A stretch of DNA of 64,000 nucleotides from Pyrobaculum sp. (GTDB lineage: Archaea > Thermoproteota > Thermoprotei > Thermoproteales > Thermoproteaceae), in NCBI GenBank assembly GCA_041287325.1, contig JBEULK010000076.1, forward strand, positions 2,852-66,851, given 5' to 3'. The notes under the pieces were generated by a model. That model was not told the origin of the DNA and did not search any database. It saw nothing but the letters and a program-made list of their open reading frames with translations. Below are positions 4,723 to 54,153 of the stretch, one piece after another. Position 1 is the first letter of the stretch. The number at the start of each line of letters is the position of its first letter. The position numbers and the translations under genes are program-made.

Positions 4723-4724
4723 GG

Positions 4725-14954: not shown

Positions 14955-15182
14955 CTACCCCGGCACTACTAAGCGGTAGACAACGCTCTCCCCCGCAGTC
15001 GGCGACTCGCGCACAATCTTCAAAACATCGCCTGGCTTAGCCCCGGCTTTAACAGCAAGGGGATCGCTTGCCCTAATCCAAGGAATCTGCCAAGGCCTAA
15101 GCCTAAGTTGCCTAAGCAAGAGCTTTGCATCCTCTTTCGGAATAACAGAGACCTCCTTTACCCCCAGAGATACGCGAGACAC
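14955..15182 (-). CDS. rpoH: DNA-directed RNA polymerase subunit H (Rpb5 C-domain)
   Basis: 75 aa with a GTG start. ..LPWIRASDPLAVKAGAKPGDVLKIVRESPTAGESVVYRLVV is the Rpb5 signature. Lies upstream of rpoB. Confidence 0.85.
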   Translation of the reverse strand: MSRVSLGVKEVSVIPKEDAKLLLRQLRLRPWQIPWIRASDPLAVKAGAKPGDVLKIVRESPTAGESVVYRLVVPG

Positions 15183-15210
15183 GTCGCCTTTCTAGAATTT
15201 ATTTAAAAAC

Positions 15211-40103: not shown

Positions 40104-41951
40104 TTACAATAAGTACTGGAACTCCTCTAAGCCAAGTCTTTTCAACGTCTCATAAGTAGGCTTGCCGTCTACCCAGCCTCTCAGTTTGTAGTACTCCTTA
40201 ATCCCCTCGTCGAACATCTTAGAGGCAGTGTGCCCAGTAGCCGGGCCGGTCTTGATAGGCTCTCTCATCTTCGGCGGCAACTCGTCCTTGAGCCATTTGC
40301 CCTCTTTTACGTGGAATAGCCTCTCTATGTTGAAAATACGCTCGCCAACCACTAGCAAGTCTTGGCCTGTAACGCCCCAGTCAAACGCCGCGTTGAACAA
40401 GTCCGCTAGGTGCTTTTCAAATATGCCGTCTTTGTCCAACGTGGCAAACTTACAGTAAGTCACCGAGTCTGTCAACGCCATTAAATGCTGGGCGTAGATT
40501 ACTAACCTCACCTGTTTCGAAATACACTCGGGGGTCTCGCATAGTGGGTCTACCTTCTCGGGGACTCCCAACACCTCCCAAGTGGGGCTGTAGGCCTCTA
40601 GGTGGTCGCCGCCGCGGTTTGCCGTGACGTACGAAATGGCGAAGCCCTTCAAAGCCCTGGGGTCGTAGGCCGGGAAGCCTTGGCCTCTAGAGCCTACAAA
40701 GGCGTCGGGGGCTCCGTATTTATTCGCAAGCCTCCAGTCGCCCTCAGCCAAGTCGTCTCCAACGTCGTCTCTGTAGGCAGTCTTGTAGACAAGATCAATA
40801 AGCGCGCCGGCGTCGCCCCAGTCGATGTCGTACTTGATCTTACCCCTCTTGACTAGTTCTAAGAATGTGCCTAGGGTGTTGCCCAGCGATATGGTGTCAA
40901 GGCCAAGCTCGTTGGCGAGCTTTTCCAACTTCAAAACGGCGTCTGGTTGCCCGAGCCCCAGATTGCCGCCTAGCGACCAGGTGGACTCGTACTCATACTT
41001 AATCTTCTCGCCGGCTACTTTATAGGGACCTGAGGTCACTACAGTCATCTGTGTGCATTGTATAGGACATAACATACATGCATGGACTTCCTTGACATAG
41101 TTTTGTTTGATATACTCTCCGCTTAGCTTATCAGCTTGTTCAAAGTACCCAGTTTCAAAGTTACGGGTGGGGTACCCGCCTATAGAGTTGATTATATTTG
41201 TGAGGAGGTTGGTGCCGTACTGGTGCAACGCCTTTGAGGTAGCTGCGTTCATCAACATTGTGGAGTACTCAGTGGCCACTTTCAAGAACCTCTGTTTATC
41301 CACAAGCTCTCTCATTGGGTAGTGGGTGCCCCACACCACAATGCCTTTCAGCTTCTTGGCGCCTGCCACTGCGCCGAGCCCGCCGCGTCCCGCGAAGCGC
41401 TCGTAGTCGCTGAAGCGTAGCCCGGCGATACGGACGAGGTTCTCGCCGGCGGGGCCGATCGTCATGACGCCAGCCTTTTTCTCATCTGGCTCAAAACCTG
41501 CGTCTTGTAACAACGCCCTCGTGGCGGCGCCGGTCCACTTGCCCCATATATGCTTCGCGGGCCTTATGGCAACCTCTCCGTCTTTAATTAGAATGTAGAC
41601 GGGGTCCTCTGCCTTTCCCTCAATTATTATGCCGTCGTAGCCCGTCCTCCTGAGCCAGTAGGCGAAGTTGCCACCTGCGTTGGAATGAGTGTAAGACCCT
41701 GTGAGAGGGCTTTTGCCCACTACGGTTATACGACTTGTGGTCAAGTTCGCAGTGCCCGACAGAGGACCTGCAAATATGTACAGCTTATTCGACGGCGACA
41801 GCGGGTCTATGCCGCGGGGCAACTCCTTCAGAGCCAGATAGGCGCCTAGCCCCCTGCCGCCTAAGAACTTCTTCACCACGTCTTCTTTGTAGACCTCCTC
41901 GCTGACTTTTTCTGTGGACAGATCTACTCTTAATATTTTGAACACCACCAT
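40104..41951 (-). CDS. aor: tungsten-type aldehyde:ferredoxin oxidoreductase
   Basis: 615 aa. N-terminal ILRVDLS....E....KKFLGGRGLG, Cys motifs CMLCPIQC, and an AOR-family C-terminal domain. Confidence 0.92.
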   Translation of the reverse strand: MVVFKILRVDLSTEKVSEEVYKEDVVKKFLGGRGLGAYLALKELPRGIDPLSPSNKLYIFAGPLSGTANLTTSRITVVGKSPLTGSYTHSNAGGNFAYWLRRTGYDGIIIEGKAEDPVYILIKDGEVAIRPAKHIWGKWTGAATRALLQDAGFEPDEKKAGVMTIGPAGENLVRIAGLRFSDYERFAGRGGLGAVAGAKKLKGIVVWGTHYPMRELVDKQRFLKVATEYSTMLMNAATSKALHQYGTNLLTNIINSIGGYPTRNFETGYFEQADKLSGEYIKQNYVKEVHACMLCPIQCTQMTVVTSGPYKVAGEKIKYEYESTWSLGGNLGLGQPDAVLKLEKLANELGLDTISLGNTLGTFLELVKRGKIKYDIDWGDAGALIDLVYKTAYRDDVGDDLAEGDWRLANKYGAPDAFVGSRGQGFPAYDPRALKGFAISYVTANRGGDHLEAYSPTWEVLGVPEKVDPLCETPECISKQVRLVIYAQHLMALTDSVTYCKFATLDKDGIFEKHLADLFNAAFDWGVTGQDLLVVGERIFNIERLFHVKEGKWLKDELPPKMREPIKTGPATGHTASKMFDEGIKEYYKLRGWVDGKPTYETLKRLGLEEFQYLL

Positions 41952-41970
41952 AGACGTGTAGAAGTCTTCT

Positions 41971-41980
41971 ATTTTTAACA
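41971..41980 (-). promoter_or_regulatory. TATA-like box for aor
   Basis: The minus strand reads TGTTAAAAAT, centred about 24 nt upstream of the ATG at 41951. Confidence 0.4.
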
Positions 41981-42124
41981 GTTAATAGTTTACGAAATTT
42001 AAATTTATAATCAAACTAACAAGTTGGGGGATCAATAGTTCTTATTCTTAATGATGAGTTTTTAATTATAGTTAATTTTAAATTTCTCAAAGATAACTTA
42101 GCACTTGTTACATAGTATTATGTG

Positions 42125-42137
42125 TAAATTTAAAAAG
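42125..42137 (+). promoter_or_regulatory. TATA-like box for the nuoJ-N unit
   Basis: TAAATTTAAAAAG, centred about 25 nt upstream of the ATG at 42156. Confidence 0.4.
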
Positions 42138-42155
42138 GCCCTCCTACAAACAGCC

Positions 42156-42557
42156 ATGGAACTATACCTCGTCTCGACCATCTCCCTGTTGGCCCTCCTC
42201 TTGTTCCTAGCCAAGGACAACATATACGCCTCTCTCTTGTTAGCCGCCGTCGGCGTAGCAGTTGCGCTGGGGGCCGCGGCGTATAAGGGCCCCATTGCGT
42301 TTATCCTCGTCTCGCTGGTCTACGTTGTGGCGTCGCTGACGCTTGTAATTGTGGCGGCCGCGTCTATCGGCGACGCGCCTAAGACTATTTCTGTGAGGAT
42401 CACGGCGCCGCTGGCCTTGTTGTTAATCCCAACAGTTTTCCTAAGCGTGCCTAAGGCAGGCGCCGCGCAGCCAGCTGGCTTGGACTACGTCCTCATCCCC
42501 TTGCTTGCAGTGTTTGTAATCTACGCGTTGAAAATAGCCATTGAGATGTCCATATGA
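42156..42557 (+). CDS. nuoJ: complex-I subunit J-like membrane protein
   Basis: 133 aa from the ATG at 42156 (the track start at 42105 is a TTG inside the AT-rich promoter). 4-5 TM segments. Position before the nuoK-like gene, with ATGA coupling. Confidence 0.55.
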   Translation: MELYLVSTISLLALLLFLAKDNIYASLLLAAVGVAVALGAAAYKGPIAFILVSLVYVVASLTLVIVAAASIGDAPKTISVRITAPLALLLIPTVFLSVPKAGAAQPAGLDYVLIPLLAVFVIYALKIAIEMSI

Positions 42558-42790
42558 CGGAGTTGTTGGTAATCGCGGCTCTTGCAACAATAGGCTTGGC
42601 CGTCATTGCAACCGCCGTCTCACTGGTAAGAGTAGTCATCGGGGCGGAGGTGTTGACGCTGTCTGCCATATACGCGGCGGCGGTTTACGGCGACTTAAAT
42701 ACGTTGGCGGTGGCCGCCGGAGTGGGGGTGGTGGAGACGCTGATGCTAGTCGCCACGTTGTTCAAGATGGCTAAGGAGGGCTATGTATGA
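42554..42790 (+). CDS. nuoK: complex-I subunit K-like membrane protein
   Basis: 78 aa with about three hydrophobic helices and a conserved acidic residue in a TM (..GAEVLTL.., VVETLML). Assigned mainly from context. Confidence 0.5.
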   Translation: MTELLVIAALATIGLAVIATAVSLVRVVIGAEVLTLSAIYAAAVYGDLNTLAVAAGVGVVETLMLVATLFKMAKEGYV

Positions 42791-44063
42791 GCTGTTTGTA
42801 CTGACAACAGTTCTTGCAGTTGTATTGGCGTTAGCCGCGGTGCGTCTAGGCGTGCTGGCTGGCTTGGCGTCGATTGCCGTGATGTTTGCCTACCTGGCGT
42901 TGGGCGGTAGGCACGTCTTGTTGGAGAAGGTGCCGTATATAGGAGACGTGGCGGTGTCGGCAACTCCCGATAAGTTACCCTTTATGGCAGTTTCCCTAGT
43001 CCTGGGGCTTTTAGCCACAGCCTACGCCCCCCGGTACCTGAGCCACGTCCGCGCGGAGAAGTGGTACTACGCGGTGAACTCGTTCTACGTGTTGTCCTTT
43101 GTCTGGCTAATCATGTTTGAAAACTTGGTGTTCGTCTTCCTCGCCCTTGAGCTGAGTATCATCACCAGCTTCCTCCTCATATGGTACTTCGGCTACGGGA
43201 ATAGGAGAGTGGTGGCCCTCTTGTACTTTATATGGGCCCAGGTGGGCTCTATCCTGTTCCTAGTGGGGACAGCCTTGGGCCAGTCTTTCGACGCGGCTAC
43301 GTTTAAAGCCTACGGTACGGCGGCCCTCTTACTACTAGTCGGGATGTTAATCAAGATGGGAACTCTGGGCGTGCACTTCTGGCTTCCCTACGCCCACGCC
43401 GAGGCGCCCACTCCTCTCTCCGCCCTTCTGAGCCCTGTACATGTGGGGCTTATGTCGTACTGGATATGGAGGCTGAAGGCTGGGACGGACTGGCCGCTGG
43501 AGGCGCTGTACCTCTACGGCCTCTTGACGGCGATTTACGGCTCCCTCCTCGTGTTTAGGGAGGTGGATATAAAGAGGGCCCTCGCTGATTCCACCATCGC
43601 CAACATGGGGCTTTTAGTTGCCGCTGCCTCTATTAAGGGCGGGTTCGGGTACTGGGCCACCGCCTTGTTATTTACTTCGCATGCCTTCGCGAAGGCGGCG
43701 GGCTTCATGCTCTCTGGTATATACATCGTACAGCTACACACAAGAGAGATAGATCAATTGGCGTGGGACCGCAAGATGCTTGCCCTTGGGCTCCTCGCTT
43801 TCGTGGCCTTGTCGGGGGTGTTTGGGCTGGGGCTTGTGGCTAAGATATACGTAGCCCTAGGCGTGCCTCACAGTGTCTCAGCAGTTGTCTTGCTGGTTGT
43901 TGCCTTGTTCTCCACGGCGTTGTACAACTTTTATCTTTTCAATAGGATGTACAGGGCGGGCGCAGGTGAGGTAAAGGCGCCTGTAGACATGTACTATACC
44001 TCGCTCATGGCCGCCGCCATGCCTTACGTATTGCTCGCGGCGTTGCCATGGCTACTCCACTAG
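42783..44063 (+). CDS. nuoM: complex-I antiporter-like subunit M
   Basis: 426 aa. WLPYAHAEAPTPLSALLS (NuoM/ND4 signature). Confidence 0.78.
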   Translation: MYELFVLTTVLAVVLALAAVRLGVLAGLASIAVMFAYLALGGRHVLLEKVPYIGDVAVSATPDKLPFMAVSLVLGLLATAYAPRYLSHVRAEKWYYAVNSFYVLSFVWLIMFENLVFVFLALELSIITSFLLIWYFGYGNRRVVALLYFIWAQVGSILFLVGTALGQSFDAATFKAYGTAALLLLVGMLIKMGTLGVHFWLPYAHAEAPTPLSALLSPVHVGLMSYWIWRLKAGTDWPLEALYLYGLLTAIYGSLLVFREVDIKRALADSTIANMGLLVAAASIKGGFGYWATALLFTSHAFAKAAGFMLSGIYIVQLHTREIDQLAWDRKMLALGLLAFVALSGVFGLGLVAKIYVALGVPHSVSAVVLLVVALFSTALYNFYLFNRMYRAGAGEVKAPVDMYYTSLMAAAMPYVLLAALPWLLH

Positions 44064-45682
44064 AATACATACTAGCCGTAGCCTTCTTAACGCCTCTGGC
44101 GGACCTGGCAACTAGGAGAGGCGTCGCGGCGCTGGCGATAAGCGCCTACGTCCTGTACGTAGCCGCCCTTGGAGACGCCTCGCCGCTTACCAATTTTGTA
44201 AAATTCGACGAGTTAACCAGGGGCTTGTTCATATTCATAAGCGGGGTATACTTCGCCGTGTCTGTCTATTCCTACTTCTACATGAGAGATGCGGAGAGAA
44301 GGGGGTGGTTCTGGGCTTGGATGAACCTCTTCTACGCTTCCATGCTCATTTTCGTCGCGGCGGACCACTACGTTTTGCTAATCCTAGGCTGGGGAGGCCT
44401 AGACGTAGCCAGCTGGAGCCTGATCTTGACGTACAGAGACGACGACGAGATGGGACGCGTAGGACCCGGCGATCGGAAGTGGGGCCTCCTCTGGCTCTGG
44501 ACGCCCAGCTCCTCGGCCCTGCGGGCTATTTTGACCGTGGAGGTAGGCTCAGCCTCTCTGCTGGCCGGCATGGGCCTTGCCTCTGCGGCCTACAACACGC
44601 CGTACATCTCTCAGTGGGGTCAGCTGGGGGAGCTCTCCACAATGTTAGTACTACTCGCCGCCTTTGTGAAATCTGCCCAGTTGCCCTTCACAGACTGGCT
44701 CATGACCGCCATGTCCGCCCCCACGCCGGTAAGTGCCCTTCTACACTCCTCTACAATGGTCAAGGCGGGGCCTATACTGTTGTTAAAACTCCACGGAGTG
44801 CTGAGCCCAGCGGCCGCGCCCGTGGCATTTGCAGTAGGCGTCGCCACGGCGCTTTACGGCGGACTCGTGGCGCTGGGGCAGAGAGAGCCTAAGGTCCTCC
44901 TAGCCGCCTCGACAACCTCTTACCTGGGGCTAATCACCGCCTACGCCTTGAAGAACCCGGAGGAGGCCCTGTGGCTTATCTACGCACACGGCGTTGCCAA
45001 GGCCGCCTTGTTCATGGCAGTGGGGCACGCCATACACGAGACCCACAGCAGAGCCCCCGAGGAGTATCCACTCTCCTCAAAGATAACCATGGGACTAGCT
45101 CTCCTAACCCTTGTAGGGCTCACGCCTCTTGGCGCCCTGGCCAAGGCCCATGCAGAGCTCTGGACCTTAGCCTTCAGTGCCCTTACGGCCGGGTATTTGG
45201 GGAGGCTGATCCTGAGGACCGCCACGGAGACGACCATAGGCGCAATGGCGGCGCCGTACACAGCCTTGGCGGCCTCCAGCTTGGCCTTCCCGCAGTTGCC
45301 TAACCCCATATGGGCCGTGGCGCTTCTAGGCATGGCTCTTGCGTATGTGCCTCCTCCGGAGGCGTTGACAAGGCGGCTCTGGCTACCCTGGCTATTTGAC
45401 GTGTTGGCCCCCCGCGTCTTTAACTATGTAAAGAGCTTTGCGGCCAGGGCAGACGAGCTACTAGATAAGGTGTTGTTTAGAACACAAGAGCTTTGGCACA
45501 TGGCAGTTGCCGCGGTCACTGTGGCAGACCACGCAGTGGACATCGCGCTCCACGACGGCTTTACAGAGGCCGTGAGGAGGGCGTCACGAGCCGTGTCGGC
45601 TAGGAACTTCGACTACTACATATACGTAGGAGGCGTGGGGGTAGGCGTCTTGCTACTGTTGGTGTTGATATGGATCTACTAG
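44048..45682 (+). CDS. nuoL: complex-I antiporter-like subunit L
   Basis: 544 aa. KSAQLPFTDWLMTAMSAPTPVSALLHSSTMVKAG (NuoL/ND5 signature). Confidence 0.85.
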   Translation: MATPLEYILAVAFLTPLADLATRRGVAALAISAYVLYVAALGDASPLTNFVKFDELTRGLFIFISGVYFAVSVYSYFYMRDAERRGWFWAWMNLFYASMLIFVAADHYVLLILGWGGLDVASWSLILTYRDDDEMGRVGPGDRKWGLLWLWTPSSSALRAILTVEVGSASLLAGMGLASAAYNTPYISQWGQLGELSTMLVLLAAFVKSAQLPFTDWLMTAMSAPTPVSALLHSSTMVKAGPILLLKLHGVLSPAAAPVAFAVGVATALYGGLVALGQREPKVLLAASTTSYLGLITAYALKNPEEALWLIYAHGVAKAALFMAVGHAIHETHSRAPEEYPLSSKITMGLALLTLVGLTPLGALAKAHAELWTLAFSALTAGYLGRLILRTATETTIGAMAAPYTALAASSLAFPQLPNPIWAVALLGMALAYVPPPEALTRRLWLPWLFDVLAPRVFNYVKSFAARADELLDKVLFRTQELWHMAVAAVTVADHAVDIALHDGFTEAVRRASRAVSARNFDYYIYVGGVGVGVLLLLVLIWIY

Positions 45683-46761
45683 TGGCGCTCCTCGTCGCCG
45701 GCTACGCGGCGCTTCGCGTCGTGGTCAGGTTTGTATACGTAGACTTGGTGTACATATCTGCGTTGGCCTACCTTGCCTATTCGCTAGGGCGGCTTGACTT
45801 GGCGGCTTTCTCCTCAGTATACATCCTCGCCACGGTCATGGTGGCCAAGGGCAAGTTTACAGGTCAGGCAGGAATGGCGTCTGCGCTGTCTTACACCGGG
45901 GCCATCTTAATCTCATCAGGGCTTCCTCATCTACAAGCGCTGGGCTTCGCCATGGCCACCATGGCCCCCGCCTTGTTGCTAGTCACTGAGGCAGACAGGG
46001 GGTCGCTGGAGGGGCTCTTCCGCTACCTGGTCATATCCACCGTCGTCACCAACTTCTTAATAATCGGACTGTCAACCAGGGGCGGGACTTTCGGCGAGTT
46101 TTTCATACTCATGGCAGTGATCGCAGAGATGGGGGCCGCGCCCCTCTACGTGTGGGTTGTAGACGTCTACGGCAGGTCTAGCCCCGCCGGCCTCGCGGCC
46201 CTGGCCAGCCTCCCCAAGCTAGCCGCCGGCTTTGTCTTAATGTACGTAGCCCCCGAGCTCCCGCCCGCGGCTTTCTACGCAGTAGGCGCCGTGTCCATGT
46301 TGCTAGGCAACCTAGGCGCCCTTACCAGCGGAGATTTGAGAAGAGTGTTGGCGTACTCCACGGTGGCGCACGCTGGCTTTGCCCTCTTTGCCTACCCCCT
46401 GTCGCCAGCCGTCTCAGTGTTGCTCATCTTAGCAGACGCCGTGGGGAAGATGGCTTTGTTTAGCCACCTCTCGGCGGGGTCTGCCAGGTGGCCAGCCGTG
46501 GTTATGGCTATGAACCAGATAGGGATTCCTCCTGCCCTTGGCTTTTGGCCAAAGTTGTTAATTATAGTTCTAACTGCACAGCACCTAGGCCCAGTTGCCG
46601 CCGCCTATTTGCTGGGAAACGTCGTGCTCTCCGTGCCGTATTACTTTAGAGTAGCCCGCGATCTGCCCGAGGGGGCGCTCCGGTTTCCGGCGGCGGTTGC
46701 TGTATTTACAACAGTGGCTGGCGCGGCGGCTCCTCTGTGGCTGGCCGCGGTTCTTTCTTAA
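45670..46761 (+). CDS. nuoN: complex-I antiporter-like subunit N
   Basis: 363 aa. APLYVWVVDVYGRSSPAGLAALASLPKLA (NuoN/ND2-like). Short for the family. Confidence 0.72.
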   Translation: MDLLVALLVAGYAALRVVVRFVYVDLVYISALAYLAYSLGRLDLAAFSSVYILATVMVAKGKFTGQAGMASALSYTGAILISSGLPHLQALGFAMATMAPALLLVTEADRGSLEGLFRYLVISTVVTNFLIIGLSTRGGTFGEFFILMAVIAEMGAAPLYVWVVDVYGRSSPAGLAALASLPKLAAGFVLMYVAPELPPAAFYAVGAVSMLLGNLGALTSGDLRRVLAYSTVAHAGFALFAYPLSPAVSVLLILADAVGKMALFSHLSAGSARWPAVVMAMNQIGIPPALGFWPKLLIIVLTAQHLGPVAAAYLLGNVVLSVPYYFRVARDLPEGALRFPAAVAVFTTVAGAAAPLWLAAVLS

Positions 46762-46831
46762 TCTATCATTATATTAAGTTAAAGTTTTTCCAAACCTCTA
46801 TTTACATGAACATTTCTAGTCCATAGAGAAA

Positions 46832-46842
46832 CTTAAATATTA
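46832..46842 (+). promoter_or_regulatory. TATA-like box for the por operon
   Basis: CTTAAATATTA, centred about 22 nt upstream of the ATG at 46859, inside the 91-nt spacer after nuoN. Confidence 0.45.
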
Positions 46843-46858
46843 CATTCCACGTGTGTAC

Positions 46859-47797
46859 ATGCGAGTGGAGACGGTTTGGATTGGCAGAGGGGGGCAGGGA
46901 ATCGTCACGGCTACTTACATAATCGCTGATGCCACTATTTTCGACGGTTTTTACGCTATTGCAAACCCCGAGTTCGGGGCGGAGAGGAGAGGCGCCCCGG
47001 TCAAGGCGTTTTTAACAATTAGTAAAAACCCAATCGAGGACCAGGAACCTGTTAAGACGCCCGACGTGGTGGTGGTTTTTGACGACAAGTTAATTAATAG
47101 CATGAGGTTTGTCATAGATGCAGTAAAGCCAGGTGGGTACGTTATTATAAACACAGGTAAGCCCGTCGAGGAGGCGGTAAATCTCGTGGGCCGCGACGAT
47201 GTGAACATCGTGGTGGTGGACGCCATATCCATTGCGCGGAAGCACGTAAAACTAGACGTGCCGAATGGCCCCTTGTCAGGTGCTTTTTCTAAGGTGATGG
47301 GCTTCCCCCGGCTGGAGTCTATAAAACAGGCTCTTGAAAACCAGCTTGGCAAAGCAGTAGAAGAAAACTACGCGGCGGTGAAAGAGGCGTACGAAGTGGC
47401 CAAGGTGGTGCCTGCGAGGAGGGTAGACGCCGCCGCGAAGCCAAAGGGCATTATATCAACCACCTCCGCCTTCTTGACGGGGCCTTACGAGGTTGTGGGC
47501 TGGCACGAGGTGAATAAGGCCGGTGCAGTTTACCCAGGAACAAGTCTCCTCTACACCACGGGAGGGTGGCGTATTGAAAAGCCTGTGATCGAACACTCGA
47601 AGTGTATTATGTGTAGGAAGTGCTGGCTTTACTGCCCAGACGACGCCGTAATTGAGGCGTGGAAAGAGGTAGAGGGGCCTAGGGGCAGGAGGCTGAGGAT
47701 GAAGTTCATCGACTTTGACTACGCCTACTGCAAGGGGTGTGGAATCTGTGCAGAAGTGTGCCCAACGGGGGCAATACAAATGGTGAGAGAAATATGA
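46859..47797 (+). CDS. porG: 2-oxoacid:ferredoxin oxidoreductase gamma-delta fusion subunit
   Basis: Gamma part (IGRGGQGIVTA..FGAERRGAP), and a C-terminal delta part with two 4Fe-4S motifs (CIMCRKCWLYCP, CKGCGICAEVCP). Confidence 0.85.
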   Translation: MRVETVWIGRGGQGIVTATYIIADATIFDGFYAIANPEFGAERRGAPVKAFLTISKNPIEDQEPVKTPDVVVVFDDKLINSMRFVIDAVKPGGYVIINTGKPVEEAVNLVGRDDVNIVVVDAISIARKHVKLDVPNGPLSGAFSKVMGFPRLESIKQALENQLGKAVEENYAAVKEAYEVAKVVPARRVDAAAKPKGIISTTSAFLTGPYEVVGWHEVNKAGAVYPGTSLLYTTGGWRIEKPVIEHSKCIMCRKCWLYCPDDAVIEAWKEVEGPRGRRLRMKFIDFDYAYCKGCGICAEVCPTGAIQMVREI

Positions 47798-49002
47798 CGG
47801 CGCAGGTCCTAGCCCCAAAAGAGCGCAAAATTGCACAACGACGCATAGCGCTCACCGGAAATCATGCAGTGGCGCTGGCCGTCAAGATGTGTAGGCCAGA
47901 GGTTGTGGCGGCATACCCAATCACGCCGCAGACTCAAGTAGTGGAGAAACTAGCCGAATATGTCAACAACGGCGAGCTTGCCGCCGAGTACATCACGGCA
48001 GAGAGCGAACATTCGGCGATATCGGCAGTCATAGGGGCCTCCGCGGCAGGCGCCCGTGTTTTCACCGAGACGGCATCGCAAGGGCTCTTCCATATGTACG
48101 AAAACCTGCCCATAGCTGTCGGCTTGAGGCTACCTATAGTCATGGGCGTGGCTGCGAGGACTATGTCGGCGCCTATAAACGTCTGGGGCGAGTACAGCGA
48201 TGTGATGGCTATGAGAGAGCTGGGTTGGATAATCTACATCGCCCAGACAGCCCAGGAGGCCTTCGACACGATAATTCAAGCATATCGAGTGGCGGAGGAC
48301 TCTAGAGTCCACTTGCCCGTATTAGTAGCGTACGACGGCTTCTGGACAAGCCACGTCTTACAGCCGCTTGACGTGCCCGAAGACGAAGAAGACGTCATAA
48401 GGTTTGCCCCAATTACGAGGAATTGGGTTAAGCTAGACGTGGACAACCCAGCTCAGCTGGGGGCGGTGGGCACGCCGGAGTGGTACTGGGAGATTAGGTG
48501 GCAGGCAGTAGAGGCGCTTAGAAGCTCTGTCAAAGTAATTGAAGAAGTTGACGCGGAGTTTGGCAAGTGGTTTGGCCGTAGCTACGGCTTGGCGACGCCG
48601 TACAGGCTCGAAGACGCCGAGTTGGCAATTGTGACATACGGCTCGATCTTCGGCATGGTGAAGAAGGTGGTAGACAAGTTGAGGTCTGAGGGCGTTAGGG
48701 CCGGGGCGCTGAGGCTTAGGGTGATAAGGCCTTGGCCAGGCGACCTCTTGAGAGAACTGCTCGGCCACGTGGACAAGGTTGCTGTAATCGATAGGGCTAT
48801 TAATCACGGCGGTCCGCTGTACGGCCCCATGGCTGTTGAAATAGCGGCTACCTTGGCGAGGCCGGTATACAACGTGTTGGCTACCATTGGGATGAGAGCC
48901 ATCGACTCAGATATGATATACGAAGCCGCTGTTAAGATATACAAAGGCCTGTGGGCTCCCAACCAGCCGTACACGGTGGGCTTGAGGGGAGGCTATGAGT
49001 GA
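47794..49002 (+). CDS. porA: 2-oxoacid:ferredoxin oxidoreductase alpha subunit
   Basis: Start taken at MTAQVL (ATG 47794, ATGA overlap with the gamma-delta stop). LTGNHAVA.., AAYPITPQT, ESEHSA. Confidence 0.9.
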   Translation: MTAQVLAPKERKIAQRRIALTGNHAVALAVKMCRPEVVAAYPITPQTQVVEKLAEYVNNGELAAEYITAESEHSAISAVIGASAAGARVFTETASQGLFHMYENLPIAVGLRLPIVMGVAARTMSAPINVWGEYSDVMAMRELGWIIYIAQTAQEAFDTIIQAYRVAEDSRVHLPVLVAYDGFWTSHVLQPLDVPEDEEDVIRFAPITRNWVKLDVDNPAQLGAVGTPEWYWEIRWQAVEALRSSVKVIEEVDAEFGKWFGRSYGLATPYRLEDAELAIVTYGSIFGMVKKVVDKLRSEGVRAGALRLRVIRPWPGDLLRELLGHVDKVAVIDRAINHGGPLYGPMAVEIAATLARPVYNVLATIGMRAIDSDMIYEAAVKIYKGLWAPNQPYTVGLRGGYE

Positions 49003-50065
49003 GGTCAAGGGCAGGTTTAGGGAAAGGATATACATACGGCGTAGTCAGTTGTTGTTGCCGGGCATGAAGGCGGCAGAGGAGTACCCGGGTCTCTACGAGT
49101 ATGCAAATTTCGAGCTTCCACAAGAGGAGTTGTTCTTGCCGGGCCACGGGCTGTGCGCTAGCTGTACCATAGGAGTAATCGCGAGGCATATGTTGAAAGC
49201 GCTGGGCCCCGACACTATTGTAGTAACCGCCACTGGCTGTGCCGAGGTCTCCACTGTGGTGTACCCCCGTACAAACTGGGCTGTGCCGTGGATTCACGTA
49301 GCCTTTGGCAACGGCGGCGCGGTGGCCTCGGGCATAGAGGCTGCGATCAAGGCGCTGAAGAGGAGGGGAGTCGTAGACCCTAATAGGAAGATAAACGTGG
49401 TGGTGTTTGCAGGCGACGGCGGCACTGCGGACATCGGGTTCCAGGCCTTAAGCGGCATGTTTGAGAGGGGGCACAAGGTGATGTACGTCATGTACGACAA
49501 TGAGGGGTACATGAACACGGGCATACAACGAAGCGGCACCACGCCTCTCGGCGCCTCGGCCACGACGTCTCCAGCGGGTAAGAAGGTGCCTGGCAACATC
49601 ACCCACAAGAAGCCCATGGCGGCAATAGCGGCGGCTCACGGCATTCCCTACGTGGCCACTGCCAATCCCGCTTACGTCCACGACATGGTTTATAAGTTTA
49701 AAAAAGCGGCCGAGGTGGACGGCCCGGCGTTTATACATGTCCTCCAGTCTTGCACGCCGGGGTGGCGTTTTGAGCCGAAGTACGCCATTAGAGTGTTGGA
49801 ACTAGCCACTGAGACTGGGTACTGGGTTAACTACGAGATTGACCACGGAGAGTTTAGAGTAACTCTGCCAGTGCCTAGTAGAAAGCCGGTGAAGTGTTTC
49901 TTGCAACTACAGGGCAGGTTTAAGCACTTAAAACAAGAAGAGATAGACACAATTCAAGCCATTATTGACAGAGACGTTGAGGAGATAAACAGAGTTGTGG
50001 GCAGGGAGATTATCGGCCCCGTGGATCCCAACCTGCCTTGCATGACTCCCAGAGGTGCCCGATGA
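48995..50065 (+). CDS. porB: 2-oxoacid:ferredoxin oxidoreductase beta (TPP) subunit
   Basis: 356 aa. GHGLCASC, TGC, GDGGTADIG..., YDNEGYMNTG. 8-nt overlap with porA (ATGAGTGA). Confidence 0.9.
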   Translation: MSEVKGRFRERIYIRRSQLLLPGMKAAEEYPGLYEYANFELPQEELFLPGHGLCASCTIGVIARHMLKALGPDTIVVTATGCAEVSTVVYPRTNWAVPWIHVAFGNGGAVASGIEAAIKALKRRGVVDPNRKINVVVFAGDGGTADIGFQALSGMFERGHKVMYVMYDNEGYMNTGIQRSGTTPLGASATTSPAGKKVPGNITHKKPMAAIAAAHGIPYVATANPAYVHDMVYKFKKAAEVDGPAFIHVLQSCTPGWRFEPKYAIRVLELATETGYWVNYEIDHGEFRVTLPVPSRKPVKCFLQLQGRFKHLKQEEIDTIQAIIDRDVEEINRVVGREIIGPVDPNLPCMTPRGAR

Positions 50066-50460
50066 TTGCCCACTTAAAACTATTCGCGGTGGCTTTTAAA
50101 AACCTTTTCGAAAGACCGTGGACAGTCCGGTGGCCAGAGGAGAGGCGAGACTACGGCGATGGGGTACGCGGCTTTATTGTCAACGACCGGTCGAGGTGCA
50201 TATCTTGCCAGCTCTGCGAGGCGGTTTGTCCAGCAAAGGCGATAAAGTTCCACATAGAGGAGGACGGGAAGCGCTACCCGGGGATAGACTGGGGGAGGTG
50301 TATACTCTGCGGCTACTGCGTAGACGCCTGCCCCACGGGGTCTCTACGCCACACTGGACATTTGGAAATCACATGGAGCGACTTATCCACGTACAAAAAG
50401 CCGAGGGAGATGGAGCCCCAAGTGGTGAACGCCGAGGCTGGCGGCAAATCGCTGGTGTGA
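50062..50460 (+). CDS. nuoI: complex-I subunit I (2x4Fe-4S)
   Basis: Start at MIAHLKLF (ATG 50062-50064), overlapping the porB TGA (50063-50065). CISCQLCEAVCP and CILCGYCVDACP. Confidence 0.85.
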   Translation: MIAHLKLFAVAFKNLFERPWTVRWPEERRDYGDGVRGFIVNDRSRCISCQLCEAVCPAKAIKFHIEEDGKRYPGIDWGRCILCGYCVDACPTGSLRHTGHLEITWSDLSTYKKPREMEPQVVNAEAGGKSLV

Positions 50461-50466
50461 GGGGGT

Positions 50467-51438
50467 ATGGCTCTACCGCTTCGCCTAGACATAGCCGCCG
50501 CGCTGGTTTTTCCAGGCATAGCCGGCGTACTGGGCTTCTTGGTGGTGGCCATATGGGCTGAGAGGAAGCTGGTGGCTAGGGTGCAGTGGAGGTATGGCCC
50601 TCTATACGTGTCTAAGGCCCTGGGGGGCTTTCTACAGCCGCTCGCAGACTTGGTTAAGCTTGTTTTTTCAGAGCTGGTTCTGCCGAGACATACCAACCGA
50701 CTCCTGTTTGCCTTAACGCCTGTGCTCCTCTTTGTGGCTGAGGCGTTGCCGGTGGCCTTCATAGCAGCGGCGCCGGGGCTAGTCATATATCACAATTCCT
50801 ACGGCATAGTCATAGCCGCCGTGGTTTGGATGTTCTCGGCTGTGGCCCTTGTGGGCATGGCGTGGACGGAGGCCGACAAGTTCACCTACGTGGGGGCTGT
50901 GAGGGAGATTTTACTAACCGCGGCTTATGAGGTGCCTCTCCTCCTCTCTGTCTTGGCTATGGTGATTCTCTACCAGACAGCCGACCCGTTCAAGGTGGTG
51001 GAGAGCCAGCGTCTGTGGGGCATTGTGCTCAACCCACTGGCCTTCCTCGCTTTCTACATCTCCTTGATGATGTCCACTACGAGACTTCCCTTTGAGATAC
51101 CTGAGGCGGAGTCTGAGGTGGTCCTCGGCCCCTACACTGAGTACGGCTCTACCTTGTTTATCTTCTCCTTCGGCGGAGTTTACGTGAAGGTATACGCAGG
51201 GTCGTTGCTAGGAGCTGTGTTGTTCTTAGGCGGCTGGGCCCCGTTTGACGACGTCTTCCTCGGCGCAGTGGCCACGGCAGTGAAGACGGCGTTGTTTGCC
51301 ATGCCGCTGTTATTAGTCAGAGCTGTCTACCCCAGGTATAGAATAGACCAGGCGCTTAGACTCGGCTGGACAAAGCTCCTGGGCCTATCTGCCGGCGCGG
51401 TCGCCTTGTCGGCGCTGTGGGCATGGTCGCCTTGGTGA
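50467..51438 (+). CDS. nuoH: complex-I subunit H
   Basis: 323 aa. AERKLVARVQWRYGP...GGFLQPLADLVKL. GAGGGGG lies just upstream of the ATG (SD-like). Confidence 0.9.
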   Translation: MALPLRLDIAAALVFPGIAGVLGFLVVAIWAERKLVARVQWRYGPLYVSKALGGFLQPLADLVKLVFSELVLPRHTNRLLFALTPVLLFVAEALPVAFIAAAPGLVIYHNSYGIVIAAVVWMFSAVALVGMAWTEADKFTYVGAVREILLTAAYEVPLLLSVLAMVILYQTADPFKVVESQRLWGIVLNPLAFLAFYISLMMSTTRLPFEIPEAESEVVLGPYTEYGSTLFIFSFGGVYVKVYAGSLLGAVLFLGGWAPFDDVFLGAVATAVKTALFAMPLLLVRAVYPRYRIDQALRLGWTKLLGLSAGAVALSALWAWSPW

Positions 51439-51767
51439 TATTTATCGGCCTGCTCGCCGCGGCCTTGGTTCTTTTAGTAGCGGTGGGATATTTACTAGCG
51501 CCGCGGAGGAGTAGCGAGGTGAAGGAGAGGCGTTTTGAGGCTGGCAACCCCCCCTACGGCGAGGCGAAGAGGAGGCTAGTGATGCAGTACATCGGCTACA
51601 TCTACTTAGCGACGGCGATTGAAGCATTGGTAGGAATTATGATCATAGCCGCCTTGTTAGGCGTAGATGTGAAACTGCTTGCCGCCGTGGGGGGCGCCCT
51701 CGGCGCCGTCTTAGTCTTCGTCGCCAGGTATATAAAAGACGTGGCTGATGTAAAGAAGTGGAAATAG
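51423..51767 (+). CDS. nuoA: complex-I subunit A-like
   Basis: About 114 aa, three TM segments, FEAGNPPYGEA loop (compare YECG in NuoA). Overlaps the nuoH end. Confidence 0.62.
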   Translation: MVALVIFIGLLAAALVLLVAVGYLLAPRRSSEVKERRFEAGNPPYGEAKRRLVMQYIGYIYLATAIEALVGIMIIAALLGVDVKLLAAVGGALGAVLVFVARYIKDVADVKKWK

Positions 51768-51857
51768 ACAGCTGTCGAATTAGACCTACAAACAGGATGG
51801 ATTTTTAATTATATAAAATAGAAAAAAGAGTTTTAAGAGGATGATATTTATCGACTT

Positions 51858-52295
51858 ATGAAGGTTTATATGAAAAAAGCCGTGGATAAGTTGGCTAAGT
51901 GGGGCACAAAGTGGTCTCTGTGGCCTCCTCATCTTGTCACTGCTTGTTGCGGCGTTGAGTTCGCCCACGTCTTTGGCTCTGTCTACGACGCAGAGAGGTT
52001 CGGCATGTTGCCCATGGGATCTCTTAGACAAAGCAACGTTTTAGTCATCGAAGGGACAATTACAATGAAGATGGCGAAATATGTAAAATATGTATATGAG
52101 CAGATGCCCAACCCCAAGTACGTAATAGCCATGGGGGCTTGTGCCATCAAAGGTGGGGTCTTCTACGGCAGTTATCACATGGTGCCTGCCTCTAAGGTAG
52201 TCCCAGTTGATAGATACGTCTCGGGGTGTCCCCCGGCTCCCGAGGCGCTGTTGAAGTCAGTCAAAGAGTTGCAAGAGAAGATATATGCTCAGTGA
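51858..52295 (+). CDS. nuoB: complex-I subunit B (N2 cluster subunit)
   Basis: 145 aa. CCGVEF, GACAIKGG, SGCPPAPEAL. The start could instead be the ATG at 51870. Confidence 0.9.
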   Translation: MKVYMKKAVDKLAKWGTKWSLWPPHLVTACCGVEFAHVFGSVYDAERFGMLPMGSLRQSNVLVIEGTITMKMAKYVKYVYEQMPNPKYVIAMGACAIKGGVFYGSYHMVPASKVVPVDRYVSGCPPAPEALLKSVKELQEKIYAQ

Positions 52296-53505
52296 GTGGC
52301 CATTTACGGCGAGGTTTGGAGACACGTTTTTTGTAGAGAAAGAAGAAGAGTTGTTGAGGGGGAGGAGGGGCATGGTGCTGGTGGTAGGTCCGCAACACCC
52401 CGGCTCGGGCCACATGAGGTTGTTTGTGGTTCTGGAAGGCGACGTGATTGAAGACGTGTACCCAGACCCGGGCTTTGTCCACAGGGGGGTAGAAAAGCTG
52501 GCGGAGAACAGGCCCTACTGGACGCTGGTGCCTCTCGTGGAGAAGGCATCTATAATGGACAGCATGAACATCACCTACCCTGTAGTACTGGCGCTGGAAG
52601 AGGCGCTGGGCCTTGTCCCACCTCCGCGGGCGCAGTACCTGCGCCTAATAGTGGCAGAGCTGTCTAGGATTAGGACTCACCTATATGACATGGCCTTGCT
52701 GGGCATATTCCTCGGCCACTCCACGGCGTTTATGTGGGGGTTCGCCTTACAAGACTTATTTACAGAAGTTTTTGCAAAGATCACGGGGGCCCGCACCACG
52801 ATCTCATATCCAATACCGGGAGGCGTGAGAAGAGACTTTAAGCCAGAACACGTCGACACGGTCAAGCGGCTCTTAGACAAGGTGGAGGCGAAGCTGAGGG
52901 ACTTCAAGACCTTGTTCCTCGATAACCCGGTCACGAAGGCGAGGCTGGAGGGGGTGGGCGTCTTAGACGCAAAAACTGTGACTGAGCTGGGCGTGGTAGG
53001 GCCGTTTGCAAGAGCCTCAGGGGTAGACTACGACGTGAGGAAAGTACATCCGTACGACGCGTATGCAGAGCTGGGCTACGAGCCGGTGGTGGAGAAGGCA
53101 GGCGACGCGTGGGCCCGCGCCGCCGTGAGGTGGGGCGAGGTGCAAGCCTCTATTCAGCTGGTTAGGCAGGCTCTAAAAGAGTTGCCCGACGGCGACGTAA
53201 TAGACAAGGCCCTTCTGTTTAAAAACCCGGAGCACTGGAGGGGAGGCGCCTCGGGCGTTCTGGGCGTCTTTACTTACCTGTATCCAGAGCCCGGCGAGTA
53301 TTCAGGCATGGCGGAGGCTGGGCGCGGGCTTACGTATGTGCAAATCTTCGCCACGGGGGGCCAGAGGCTGTACCGCATGAGATTCGTCACTCCAAGTTGG
53401 CGTAACTTAAGGGCAATGATAGAGGCCATGAAGGGGCAGAGGCTGGCCGACATGCCGGCGGTGTACATGTCCTTTGGATACTTCCCGCCTGAGGCAGACC
53501 GATGA
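52285..53505 (+). CDS. nuoD: complex-I subunit D (49-kDa)
   Basis: 406 aa. GPQHPGSGHMRL, HRGVEKL. The hydrogenase NiFe cysteines are absent, so it is Nuo-type. No NuoC domain at the N-terminus. Confidence 0.9.
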   Translation: MLSEWPFTARFGDTFFVEKEEELLRGRRGMVLVVGPQHPGSGHMRLFVVLEGDVIEDVYPDPGFVHRGVEKLAENRPYWTLVPLVEKASIMDSMNITYPVVLALEEALGLVPPPRAQYLRLIVAELSRIRTHLYDMALLGIFLGHSTAFMWGFALQDLFTEVFAKITGARTTISYPIPGGVRRDFKPEHVDTVKRLLDKVEAKLRDFKTLFLDNPVTKARLEGVGVLDAKTVTELGVVGPFARASGVDYDVRKVHPYDAYAELGYEPVVEKAGDAWARAAVRWGEVQASIQLVRQALKELPDGDVIDKALLFKNPEHWRGGASGVLGVFTYLYPEPGEYSGMAEAGRGLTYVQIFATGGQRLYRMRFVTPSWRNLRAMIEAMKGQRLADMPAVYMSFGYFPPEADR

Positions 53506-53777
53506 TGCGCCTAAAATTAATAGACATAGAAAGCGGCCGCGAAGTAGAGGTAGAAGTGGAGAAGGAAGCCCACCCGACAAAGCTAATAGATAAGCTAAGG
53601 GAGTTAGGCGTGTTGAGCCCCCGCGAGATGGCGCTCTTAGGCACCTCGCCAGACGGCAGACGTATATACTACGTCCCCGCCGCCACTGTAGAACAGCTAG
53701 CCGCCTACCTAAGCCTGACAAAACAACTTCTATACTACAAGAAGTATCCCATTCACGGGCAACAGCATAAAAGTTAA
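53502..53777 (+). CDS. hypothetical 91-aa protein translationally coupled to nuoD
   Basis: Its ATG (53502-53504) overlaps the nuoD TGA (53503-53505). No family recognised. Confidence 0.45.
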   Translation: MMRLKLIDIESGREVEVEVEKEAHPTKLIDKLRELGVLSPREMALLGTSPDGRRIYYVPAATVEQLAAYLSLTKQLLYYKKYPIHGQQHKS

Positions 53778-53799
53778 TTTTTTTAAGGAAAGAGGCGGC

Positions 53800-54153
53800 A
53801 TGCCCTTATTGTTGAGGGCTAAGGCCCACGGATTAAGAGTAACAGGTAAGAATCTACACTACGAGGGCTCTTTAACACTAGGAAGGGACGTTATATCTGT
53901 AGTGGGCTTCCTTCCTTACGAGAAGGTAGAGGTGTACAACGTGACTAACGGTGCAAGATTTTCTACATACGTCATTGAAGGGCCCGATGGCGCGGTTGAG
54001 CTAAACGGTGCGGCGGCAAGGCTAGGGGAAGTAGGCGACATCTTAATTGTGGCGTCTTACGAATGTGTTAAAGACATACGCGACTACGTCGTGACCGTGG
54101 CAATTTTTGAAAATAACAGAGTGAAGGCTGTATACAAGAGACCAGTGCGTTGA
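53800..54153 (+). CDS. panD: pyruvoyl-dependent aspartate 1-decarboxylase
   Basis: 117 aa, collinear with bacterial PanD: LHYEGS self-cleavage site (Gly23-Ser24 at 53866-53871), NVTNGARFSTY, NGAAARLGEVGDILIVAS. Confidence 0.88.
   Translation: MPLLLRAKAHGLRVTGKNLHYEGSLTLGRDVISVVGFLPYEKVEVYNVTNGARFSTYVIEGPDGAVELNGAAARLGEVGDILIVASYECVKDIRDYVVTVAIFENNRVKAVYKRPVR

Follow-up and report, generated by a model that had tools for sequence, protein, structure and literature searches.

A 2-oxoacid:ferredoxin oxidoreductase operon embedded in a NuoC-less, Fqo-type complex I-like gene cluster of Pyrobaculum and Thermoproteus

The stretch analysed here (the window) comprises 64,000 nucleotides of contig JBEULK010000076.1 from a Pyrobaculum sp. 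assembly (GCA_041287325.1; positions 2,852–66,851 of the forward strand) and contains a gene cluster for a complex I-like membrane enzyme with a 2-oxoacid:ferredoxin oxidoreductase (POR) operon in its middle. Ten fqo-like genes (J, K, M, L, N, I, H, A, B and D) lie on one strand between 42156 and 53505, as read from the list of open reading frames (ORFs) and from Pfam, NCBIfam and phmmer comparisons, and the genes porGD, porA and porB (46859–50065) stand between nuoN and nuoI (Table 1). The donor of complex I-like enzymes without an NADH module is a long-standing question, and this Thermoproteaceae genome points to a POR that is tied by overlapping codons to NuoI. Genes were called from the ORF listing and from Pfam and NCBIfam scans, and the junctions were read directly; the Pfam scan took in 60 ORFs of the window, which is almost every non-overlapping ORF of at least 110 aa. 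The labels M, L and N follow gene order and size only, Pfam calling all three subunits Proton_antipo_M. Neither nuoJ nor nuoK has a Pfam match. Both are kept in relatives (tblastn mapping), and their assignment follows from gene position and a weak resemblance to Fqo-like J and K: nuoJ matches the gene preceding nuoK in two Fqo-like clusters of uncultured archaea (L021 and L023; phmmer E values of 1e-8 and 8e-8) and nuoK matches the PF00420 gene of L023 (E = 7e-7). L numbers denote the loci of relatives throughout.

The genes of the cluster are closely packed. The junctions from nuoJ to nuoN read as ATGA and as overlaps of 8 nt (nuoK/nuoM), 16 nt (nuoM/nuoL) and 13 nt (nuoL/nuoN), in agreement with the 4–16 nt given in a first-pass annotation of this DNA. 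The same annotation had placed a spacer with a TATA-like box before the por genes; the spacer and the box are present, the length being 97 nt when counted from the end of nuoN up to the ATG at 46859, where 91 nt had been given. Within the por operon, porGD and porA overlap by ATGA, and porA and porB by ATGAGTGA. The porB stop codon (TGA, 50063–50065) then overlaps the nuoI start codon (ATG, 50062–50064) in a shared ATGA at 50062–50065, so that these joins had been located correctly to the base. A Shine–Dalgarno-like GAGGTG at 50053–50058 lies four bases upstream of the nuoI ATG, and the 80 nt ahead of nuoI show no AT-rich box. After the nuoI stop (50460) comes GAGGGGG and, 6 nt on, the nuoH start at 50467; nuoA, the 90-nt AT-rich spacer, nuoB and nuoD follow, again as described before. 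All of the genes listed in the first-pass annotation are thus present, but a further gene inside its range, orf91 (53502–53777), had been overlooked. We infer that porB and nuoI are translationally coupled, so that the electron-producing enzyme and the Fe–S entry subunit would be made together.

The Pfam scan of the 60 window ORFs turned up no NuoE, NuoF or NuoG domain, which bears out the earlier statement that the NADH-oxidizing module is missing, and no FrhB-type domain of the FqoF/FpoF kind occurs in the scanned ORFs of the cluster or the window. No scanned window ORF has a Complex1_30kDa domain either, and a tblastn search of the 64 kb window, for which the verified NuoC of the relative L005 (PF00329, E = 3e-30) was the query, gave no match. 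Because NuoC is absent as well, the complex is a ten-subunit set rather than the 11-subunit set as which it had first been framed. In three relatives of the WP30-like Pyrobaculum lineage a nuoB2–nuoC pair is found on the minus strand, convergent to the cluster and directly after orf91 (L005:14938–16039, L006:15237–16335 and L017:4451–5549). The nuoB2 product has 188 aa and is ∼61% identical to the cluster NuoB, and the nuoC product that follows has 177 aa and matches PF00329. This pair, which is not in the window, could be a component of the second Nuo set or a source of NuoC in trans. Thermoproteus tenax has a separate nuo set with NuoEF(G) elsewhere in its genome (Siebers et al., 2011; PMC3189178).

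Table 1. Features of the por/fqo cluster of the window, with the intergenic regions and the divergent neighbouring gene.
Feature	Position	Strand	Basis or remark
Aldehyde:ferredoxin oxidoreductase (AOR)	40104–41951	-	Pfam AFOR_N E 3e-75, AFOR_C E 3e-121; divergent to nuoJ
AT-rich divergent intergenic region, 204 nt	41952–42155	.	Sequence reading
nuoJ/fqoJ-like membrane subunit, 133 aa from ATG 42156	42156–42557	+	Position and phmmer
nuoK/fqoK-like subunit, 78 aa	42554–42790	+	phmmer; ATGA overlap with nuoJ
nuoM-position antiporter-like subunit	42783–44063	+	Pfam Proton_antipo_M E 4.5e-26
nuoL-position antiporter-like subunit, 544 aa	44048–45682	+	Pfam Proton_antipo_M E 3.9e-26
nuoN-position antiporter-like subunit	45670–46761	+	Pfam Proton_antipo_M E 1.1e-17
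AT-rich spacer nuoN/porGD, 97 nt	46762–46858	+	Sequence reading
porGD, fused gamma and delta subunits	46859–47797	+	Pfam POR and Fer4
porA, alpha subunit	47794–49002	+	Pfam POR_N and PFOR_II
porB, TPP-binding and [4Fe-4S] beta subunit, 356 aa	48995–50065	+	Pfam TPP_enzyme_C
porB/nuoI coupling junction	50053–50065	+	Sequence reading
nuoI/fqoI, 132 aa, two [4Fe-4S] motifs	50062–50460	+	NCBIfam NuoI models
nuoH/fqoH	50467–51438	+	Pfam NADHdh E 3e-75
nuoA/fqoA, overlapping 3' end of nuoH	51417–51767	+	Pfam Oxidored_q4 E 3.6e-5; NCBIfam NuoA models; phmmer E 3e-18 to L023 gene
AT-rich spacer nuoA/nuoB, 90 nt	51768–51857	+	Sequence reading
nuoB/fqoB	51858–52295	+	Pfam Oxidored_q6; NCBIfam NF005012 182.8 bits (cut-off 116)
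nuoD/fqoD, Fqo type	52285–53505	+	Pfam Complex1_49kDa; NCBIfam NF004739 372 bits (cut-off 360)
orf91, lineage-specific 91-aa protein	53502–53777	+	Start overlaps nuoD stop by ATGA

The peripheral subunits of the membrane complex carry recognizable cofactor motifs. NuoI has two CxxCxxCxxxCP motifs for [4Fe-4S] clusters, CISCQLCEAVCP and CILCGYCVDACP, and is the predicted electron entry point; its C-terminal tail is not lysine-rich, and its homologues of at least 60% identity form a clade restricted to Thermoproteaceae, after which identity drops to 35%. NuoB has all four cysteine ligands of cluster N2 (the tandem CC in TACCGVE, GACA and GCPP). NuoD contains GPQHPGSGHMRL, a β1–β2 loop of the complex I type (GPQHP..H), and the motif EKASIMDSMN, and is without the cysteine motifs that bind a [NiFe] centre. 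Its closest relatives outside Thermoproteaceae, at 46–51% identity, include FqoD of Archaeoglobus, Ferroglobus and Geoglobus and proteins of uncultured archaea, and in an alignment the motifs GPQHPGSGHMRL and ER.SIMD..N are common to the Archaeoglobales FqoD proteins and the window NuoD. The membrane genes are of the complex I type (NuoA, NuoH, NuoJ, NuoK and three Mrp-antiporter-like subunits) and do not form the Mrp-type module of MBS and MBH. By family assignment the predicted pump is an Fqo-type complex I-like set.

The best PDB match of NuoD is nevertheless MbsL of Pyrococcus furiosus MBS (PDB entry 6u8y, chain L; 6u8y_L) with 212 bits, against 207 bits for Thermus Nqo4, and Tyr87, the quinone ligand of Nqo4, is not conserved in NuoD. 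Together with the sulfur respiration of many of the hosts, these observations would suit a complex that reduces polysulfide or sulfane sulfur, like Pyrococcus MBS, and not quinone. We give this acceptor hardly any credence. The membrane arm is of the complex I/Fqo type with no Mrp-type module, and NuoD, at 37% alignment identity to MbsL and 33% to Nqo4, is far closer to the FqoD proteins of Archaeoglobales, a characterized F420H2:quinone family from which the same tyrosine is missing. With a margin of 5 bits and a complex I-like membrane arm, the MbsL match was rejected as a sign of an MBS-type sulfur reductase. The missing Tyr87 was likewise rejected as an argument against quinone reduction; it says nothing on this point because the residue is not conserved anywhere in the Fqo clade, including Archaeoglobus.

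The domain set of the POR is complete: there is a thiamine pyrophosphate (TPP)-binding beta subunit, an alpha subunit with POR_N and domain II, a gamma subunit and a delta subunit for which two [4Fe-4S] clusters are predicted from its two CxxCxxCxxxCP motifs. The fused PorGD protein matches TIGR02175 (PorC_KorC) with 164.8 bits and TIGR02179 (PorD_KorD) with 97.4 bits and, in the PDB, 9bt4_E, 9bt4_G and 5c4i_B. PorA matches 9bt4_B (E = 9e-81) and PorB matches 9bt4_C over residues 47–328 of its 356. The closest solved relatives are the archaeal four-subunit pyruvate:ferredoxin oxidoreductase (PFOR; PDB entry 9bt4) and, after it, the Moorella oxalate oxidoreductase, which has the same fused gamma–delta layout. 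The substrate of the window enzyme is probably pyruvate. Relative to the solved homologues and to the stand-alone crenarchaeal enzymes, PorB is extended by ∼37 aa at the N-terminus and by ∼25 aa at the C-terminus, and the gamma and delta genes, which are fused in the cluster, are separate in the outgroups. A conserved cysteine in the C-terminal tail of PorB was not used as functional evidence: in Thermoproteus-type loci its TGT codon is partly set by the overlapping nuoI ATG.

A PorB scan of species-representative genomes gave 20 loci, onto which all of the window proteins were mapped by tblastn. The porB/nuoI junction is covered in 14 loci (the window, L001–L010, L017 and the metagenome contigs L027 and L028), which span 76–93% PorB identity, and the stop–start overlap is present in all 14 of them, as ATGA in Pyrobaculum-type loci and as ATGTTGA or ATGCTAG in Thermoproteus-type loci. 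Compared with the window, the Thermoproteus-type loci have 76–79% identity in PorB and 65–66% in NuoD. The synteny comparison that had been proposed with the first-pass annotation therefore finds por inside nuo throughout these Pyrobaculum and Thermoproteus loci, and the order nuoJKMLN, porGD–porA–porB, nuoI–nuoH–nuoA, nuoB–nuoD holds in every one of the Pyrobaculum or Thermoproteus loci except L003 (Thermoproteus sp. KC_019). There, nuoB–nuoD–orf91 is inverted and has moved upstream of nuoJ, and ∼1 kb of antisense sequence with three ORFs (73, 176 and 87 aa, none with a Pfam match) is inserted between nuoI and nuoH, while the porB–nuoI overlap is intact; the rearranged stretches are L003:1061–2941 and L003:11461–12435. 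In L005 and L016, of the WP30-like lineage, ∼1.5 kb is inserted between nuoN and por (L005:6367–7846 and L016:5140–6723). This insert has only ORFs that could not be annotated, with one weak match to DUF2283.

Outside the family the arrangement was not seen in the loci examined. The nearest POR homologues (in Ignisphaera, Acidilobaceae, two bacteria and one Methanobacteriota archaeon) have no nuo gene within 10 kb; PorB of Ignisphaera and Acidilobaceae is 61–66% identical to that of the window. A scan of metagenomes with a NuoI profile, whose motifs are very general, returned mostly bacterial NuoI from soil, and only L027–L031 were informative. The next-closest NuoI genes among these (L029–L031, 41–46% identity) stand in an ordinary D–H–I arrangement with no por genes. 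Among named isolates, an orthologous NuoD is found in P. islandicum, P. neutrophilum, P. ferrireducens, Pyrobaculum sp. 3827-6, T. uzoniensis and T. tenax, and the cluster of strain WP30 is L005. No match in the NuoD homologue searches, which cannot prove absence, was named P. aerophilum, P. arsenaticum, P. calidifontis or P. oguniense, and the cluster may have been lost in the clade of these four species. On this comparison of loci the arrangement is a conserved trait of Thermoproteaceae with the por–nuoI junction as its most stable part, and it is not a recent accidental insertion of por.

An old insertion is a different matter. In the ancestor of Thermoproteaceae, a housekeeping POR operon could have landed in an fqo cluster that had been gained horizontally, and have been kept there by inertia, the POR working for general metabolism and the complex being fed by any reduced ferredoxin or by another donor. 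The two enzymes do seem to have different histories, the POR being nearest to crenarchaeal PORs (Ignisphaera and Acidilobaceae) and Archaeoglobales being among the nearest relatives that the Nuo proteins have outside the family; furthermore, por genes are missing from the closest Fqo-like relatives beyond the family. Mere adjacency would nevertheless have to account for an overlap that survives in all 14 loci and in two genera while the neighbouring junctions were rearranged or interrupted, and for a POR that has gained features specific to the cluster. Because the junction was kept and the POR has these features, we consider inertia very improbable and take selection on co-expression to be indicated.

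Three promoter-like regions divide the cluster. The promoter calls are TATA-like boxes read from the sequence and supported by conservation; a sigma-70 scanner does not model archaeal promoters and was not used. In the divergent region a TATA-like AAATTTAAAAA lies ∼26 nt upstream of the nuoJ ATG. In the spacer before por the TATA-like TTAAATAT (46833–46840) lies ∼23 nt before the ATG at 46859, accompanied by a run of five T, and an AT-rich spacer with a TATA-like element 20–30 nt before the por start is present in 11 of 11 aligned loci. This spacer is likely to be the promoter of a por–nuoIHA unit with a leaderless or short-leader mRNA. Just past the nuoN stop (46762–46790), ∼70–90 nt upstream of the por start, there is in addition a TCATTAT(T)ATAA-like motif that is kept in Pyrobaculum and Thermoproteus loci (L002–L010 and L016) and that might act as a terminator context, as a distal promoter or as an operator. 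The spacer between nuoA and nuoB has a conserved TTTTTAATTATATAAAAT and a second TATA-like element. It is kept in the window, L001–L006 and L017, and in these Pyrobaculum-type genomes it is likely to be a separate promoter of nuoB–nuoD–orf91. In the Thermoproteus-type loci L007–L010 it is absent and nuoA abuts nuoB.

The 10-mer TTTAATTATA, which sits within TTTTTAATTATA, occurs at 42061–42070 (before nuoJ) and at 51804–51813 (before nuoB), and these are its sole exact copies in the 64 kb window. With up to one mismatch there are seven matches in the window, a number that none of 100 shuffles reached. This 10-mer hints at shared regulation of the nuoJ and nuoB units; a regulatory site common to both, or a strong BRE/TATA element, is possible.

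For Pyrobaculum the elements suggest three transcription units, nuoJKMLN, porGD–porA–porB–nuoI–nuoH–nuoA and nuoB–nuoD–orf91, each preceded by a TATA-like element of its own. In Thermoproteus-type loci the chain from por through nuoIHA to nuoB(D) has no spacer at all, and in some of these lineages, for example T. uzoniensis, NuoB and NuoD are fused; with nuoA and nuoB abutting or NuoB and NuoD fused, porGD to nuoD would be a single tightly packed unit in Thermoproteus. The earlier proposal of one expression unit agrees with this for por–nuoI–nuoH–nuoA, which form an overlapping or abutting chain behind a TATA-like box with the junction conserved in 14 of 14 loci. Co-expression of the POR with NuoI, NuoH and NuoA is well supported by this comparative evidence.

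The last gene of the cluster, orf91, has a run of seven T directly 3' of it. It follows nuoD in eight relatives (L001–L006, L017 and L010, the last being Thermoproteus sp. AZ2 with the gene at L010:14405–14662) and is absent after nuoD in L007 and L008. The protein has no Pfam or NCBIfam match, and HMMER found about seven credible matches among 1.8 billion representative proteins. An AlphaFold2 model from an alignment of three sequences has a pLDDT of 56 and the order beta-beta-alpha-beta-beta-alpha-beta, and Foldseek found nothing below E = 0.2 in the PDB. It is possible that orf91 encodes an accessory subunit of the complex. A P. ferrireducens protein that is annotated as a single NuoD (AET33519, 498 aa) consists of residues 1–375 of NuoD, ∼30 out-of-frame residues in place of the conserved C-terminus, and then orf91. 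We rejected it as a natural fusion of NuoD and orf91, as it is most likely to be the product of a frameshift or a sequencing error.

Taken together, we read the locus as encoding a co-expressed pair: an enzyme of the POR/VOR type, with pyruvate as its most likely substrate, and a ten-subunit, Fqo-type, proton-translocating ferredoxin:menaquinone oxidoreductase, the hand-over between the two being likeliest by way of soluble ferredoxin. We would put the probability of this reading at roughly 0.5. Gene content, cofactor motifs, family assignments and the conservation of the coupling are established directly, and from there we infer the transcription units, the acceptor, the way in which electrons flow and the involvement of free ferredoxin. 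The 2-oxoacid would be oxidized at the TPP in PorA/PorB with reduction of the PorB [4Fe-4S] cluster, from which electrons would reach the PorD domain with its two clusters and then, in the step that we consider most likely, a soluble ferredoxin. The ferredoxin would deliver them to the two [4Fe-4S] clusters of NuoI, and they would continue through cluster N2 of NuoB to menaquinone at a site formed by NuoB, NuoD and NuoH. Quinone reduction would drive proton pumping through NuoH, NuoA, NuoJ, NuoK and the three antiporter-like subunits. In T. tenax there are at least six ferredoxin genes elsewhere in the genome (Siebers et al., 2011; PMC3189178), and for Desulfitobacterium the current model likewise runs from PFOR through ferredoxin to a complex I without the N-module (PMC11238625). 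If the two enzymes are only co-expressed and linked by free ferredoxin, the cluster would be a clean system for studying ferredoxin:quinone oxidoreductase activity in Crenarchaeota.

Several observations weigh against the ferredoxin-linked pair. No ferredoxin gene is found in or beside the cluster. The best NCBIfam matches of the POR subunits are all under their equivalog cut-offs (PorA 396 with a cut-off of 550, PorB 393.5 with 405 and PorC 135 with 270). The Nqo4 quinone ligand Tyr87 is missing from NuoD, yet it is equally missing in the characterized Archaeoglobus Fqo clade. The absence of NuoC is atypical for complex I-like enzymes; the complex might assemble otherwise, or may take NuoC from a nuoB2–nuoC pair such as that seen in relatives. 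The gamma–delta fusion and the PorB extensions could mean specialization for direct docking over free ferredoxin. Finally, we found no report of transcripts, purification, protein or activity for a Thermoproteaceae cluster in the literature, two older studies (2009) not being covered.

Direct docking is the alternative that has to be taken most seriously. The POR would then be bound through PorGD and the PorB extensions to NuoI/NuoD as an input module that replaces FqoF or NuoEFG, with orf91 as a possible adaptor where NuoC is missing, and no soluble ferredoxin would be needed. The porB/nuoI overlap in every junction locus fits such an attachment, as does a cluster that encodes neither another input module nor a ferredoxin, although stop–start overlaps are frequent between genes that are merely in the same pathway. 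Neither the fusion nor the PorB extensions occur in the closest stand-alone crenarchaeal enzymes, where porG and porD are two genes and PorB is shorter; POR-type enzymes are, however, normally soluble dimers that work with free ferredoxin. A lineage-specific small protein overlaps the nuoD stop, but orf91 is missing from L007 and L008 and so is not an essential adaptor, and in Pyrobaculum the NuoB and NuoD genes lie behind a separate promoter-like spacer. Soluble dehydrogenases on NuoI-like subunits have precedents in FdhF–HycB of the Escherichia coli formate hydrogenlyase, in CooS–CooF on an Ech-type hydrogenase and in FpoF/FqoF. In formate hydrogenlyase and in the carbon monoxide dehydrogenase (CODH)–Ech system, ferredoxin-like domains link a soluble dehydrogenase physically to the NuoI-like subunit of a membrane enzyme related to complex I. 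These two are proton-reducing group-4 [NiFe] hydrogenases, whereas the window NuoD is without the [NiFe] cysteines and NuoB has the tandem-Cys N2 motif, and no polyferredoxin of the HycB or CooF type is encoded in the window cluster. Docking was proposed explicitly by Siebers et al. (2011). We consider a docked module somewhat unlikely. In its fullest form, in which the POR is the built-in input module of a NuoC-less and FqoF-less Fqo-type complex, possibly with orf91, the whole would be a single proton-pumping pyruvate (2-oxoacid):menaquinone oxidoreductase that joins a step of central carbon metabolism to the respiratory chain with no soluble carrier; this we hold to be unlikely and offer tentatively. 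If it were true, the single complex would be a new type of respiratory enzyme, in which oxidative decarboxylation is coupled directly to proton pumping, and a living example of the exchange of input modules.

The direction of electron flow allows for another alternative. Complex I-type enzymes are reversible in principle, and the proton-motive force could drive electrons from menaquinol, formed by an H2-oxidizing hydrogenase, to ferredoxin, with the POR acting as pyruvate synthase in CO2 fixation by the dicarboxylate/4-hydroxybutyrate cycle. Among the carriers of the cluster, P. neutrophilum, P. islandicum and T. tenax are facultative or obligate H2/S0 autotrophs, but the organoheterotrophs T. 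uzoniensis, Pyrobaculum sp. WP30 and P. ferrireducens have the cluster too. The cycle requires a ferredoxin-dependent pyruvate synthase (PMC12794621). P. aerophilum and P. arsenaticum, for which no NuoD match was named, were recently reported to be obligate heterotrophs, although absence of the cluster from them is not proven. A point on the other side is the AOR, a catabolic ferredoxin reducer, which is a conserved divergent neighbour of nuoJ in three loci (the window, L002 and L004). We think it improbable that reverse operation is the main function; the forward and reverse directions are not mutually exclusive.

The arrangement itself is not new. Siebers et al. (2011; PLoS One 6:e24222, PMC3189178) described the T. 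tenax fqo/oor cluster (TTX_0203–0215), with three oor genes in its middle, as unprecedented, and considered either a separate soluble OOR or a substrate-oxidizing module that feeds electrons from 2-oxoacids to the quinone pool. The statement in the first-pass annotation that the arrangement had not been described functionally stands in so far as we found no functional follow-up of the T. tenax cluster or of any other Thermoproteaceae cluster in the literature; the layout and the hypothesis were, however, published in 2011. The arrangement and its interpretation are thus already on record for T. tenax, where Siebers et al. annotated the proteins as ferredoxin:quinone oxidoreductase. The present analysis adds that the junction is conserved within the family and that the arrangement was seen only there, and it further adds the assignment to a NuoC-less Fqo type, the POR fusion and extensions, orf91 and the promoter architecture.

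The window locus is the Pyrobaculum orthologue of the T. tenax cluster. Both have ten fqo-like genes at one site with the oxidoreductase genes (oorA, oorB and a fused oorCD in T. tenax) in the middle, and neither has FqoF or FqoC; in UniRef the NuoB of T. tenax bears the name 'Ferredoxin:quinone oxidoreductase, complex I, subunit B'. The two types of locus differ in the promoter-like nuoA/nuoB spacer and ATGA overlap of the Pyrobaculum type, in place of which the Thermoproteus type has no spacer and ATGTTGA or ATGCTAG, and orf91 does not separate them cleanly, being present after nuoD in the window and in Thermoproteus sp. AZ2 and absent from the Thermoproteus-type loci L007 and L008. The Fqo of Archaeoglobus fulgidus and the Fpo of methanogens resemble the window complex in having no NuoEFG and in their NuoD motifs, and with a NuoD identity of 46–48% the group includes the nearest relatives of the Q-module beyond Thermoproteaceae. 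They have FqoF/FpoF and a NuoC homologue, in contrast, and the window cluster is without both and has por genes ahead of fqoI instead. An F420-dependent function cannot apply to the window complex. The membrane genes of the published A. fulgidus fqo operon are in the order J–K–M–L–N, the same as in the window.

Complexes of this kind seem to extend beyond Thermoproteaceae. Fqo-like clusters of uncultured archaea (L021–L024) share with the window and T. uzoniensis the lack of NuoC and a NuoB that is directly before NuoD or fused to it, at a NuoD identity of 46–51%; they differ from the window in having no por genes and in an nuoH and nuoI that lie divergent to the other genes of the cluster. 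Their NuoB–NuoD fusions are 551–556 aa long (L021:5137–12011 and L023:8089–17064, and also L022 and L024), and L023 adjoins a gene with an MtrA domain. A further uncultured relative, L025, has the classical B–C fusion and D. The comparison thus suggests a NuoC-less subtype of complex I-like enzymes. We know of no prior description of NuoC-less, Fqo-like clusters with a fused NuoB–D such as L021–L024.

Relatives of complex I that are fed by a low-potential carrier have been proposed in several groups: the cyanobacterial NDH-1, the Methanothrix Fpo without FpoF, the Campylobacter and Helicobacter Nuo fed by POR/OOR by way of flavodoxin, and the 11-subunit complex of Desulfitobacterium (PMC11238625). 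They are proposed to resemble the system described here in that a carrier reduced by 2-oxoacid oxidation delivers electrons at the NuoI side and NuoEFG is missing. In these carrier-fed relatives the nuo operon does not contain the oxidoreductase genes, unlike in the window, and the complexes use docking subunits (NdhS/V/O or NuoX/Y) or NuoI extensions, none of which is recognizable in the window. A 2011 survey came to the conclusion that complexes of 11 subunits have no designated partner protein (PMC3144371).

A few observations concern the neighbouring genes. The AOR upstream of nuoJ is a second ferredoxin-reducing enzyme beside a putatively ferredoxin-consuming complex, and its membership in the system is only a candidate one. 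Downstream, panD (aspartate decarboxylase) lies in the region 53778–54153 and starts 22 nt past the orf91 stop, behind the seven-T run and a AGGAAAGAGG element. In L001 and L002 no panD match was found downstream of orf91, and panD is therefore probably not part of the orf91/nuo unit. Further away, at 4288–17555 on the minus strand, lies a housekeeping block that is unrelated to the por/nuo finding; its genes encode ribosomal proteins S9, L13 and S12, a NusA-like KH protein, RNA polymerase subunits A', A'', B and D, and subunits A and E of an A-type ATP synthase.

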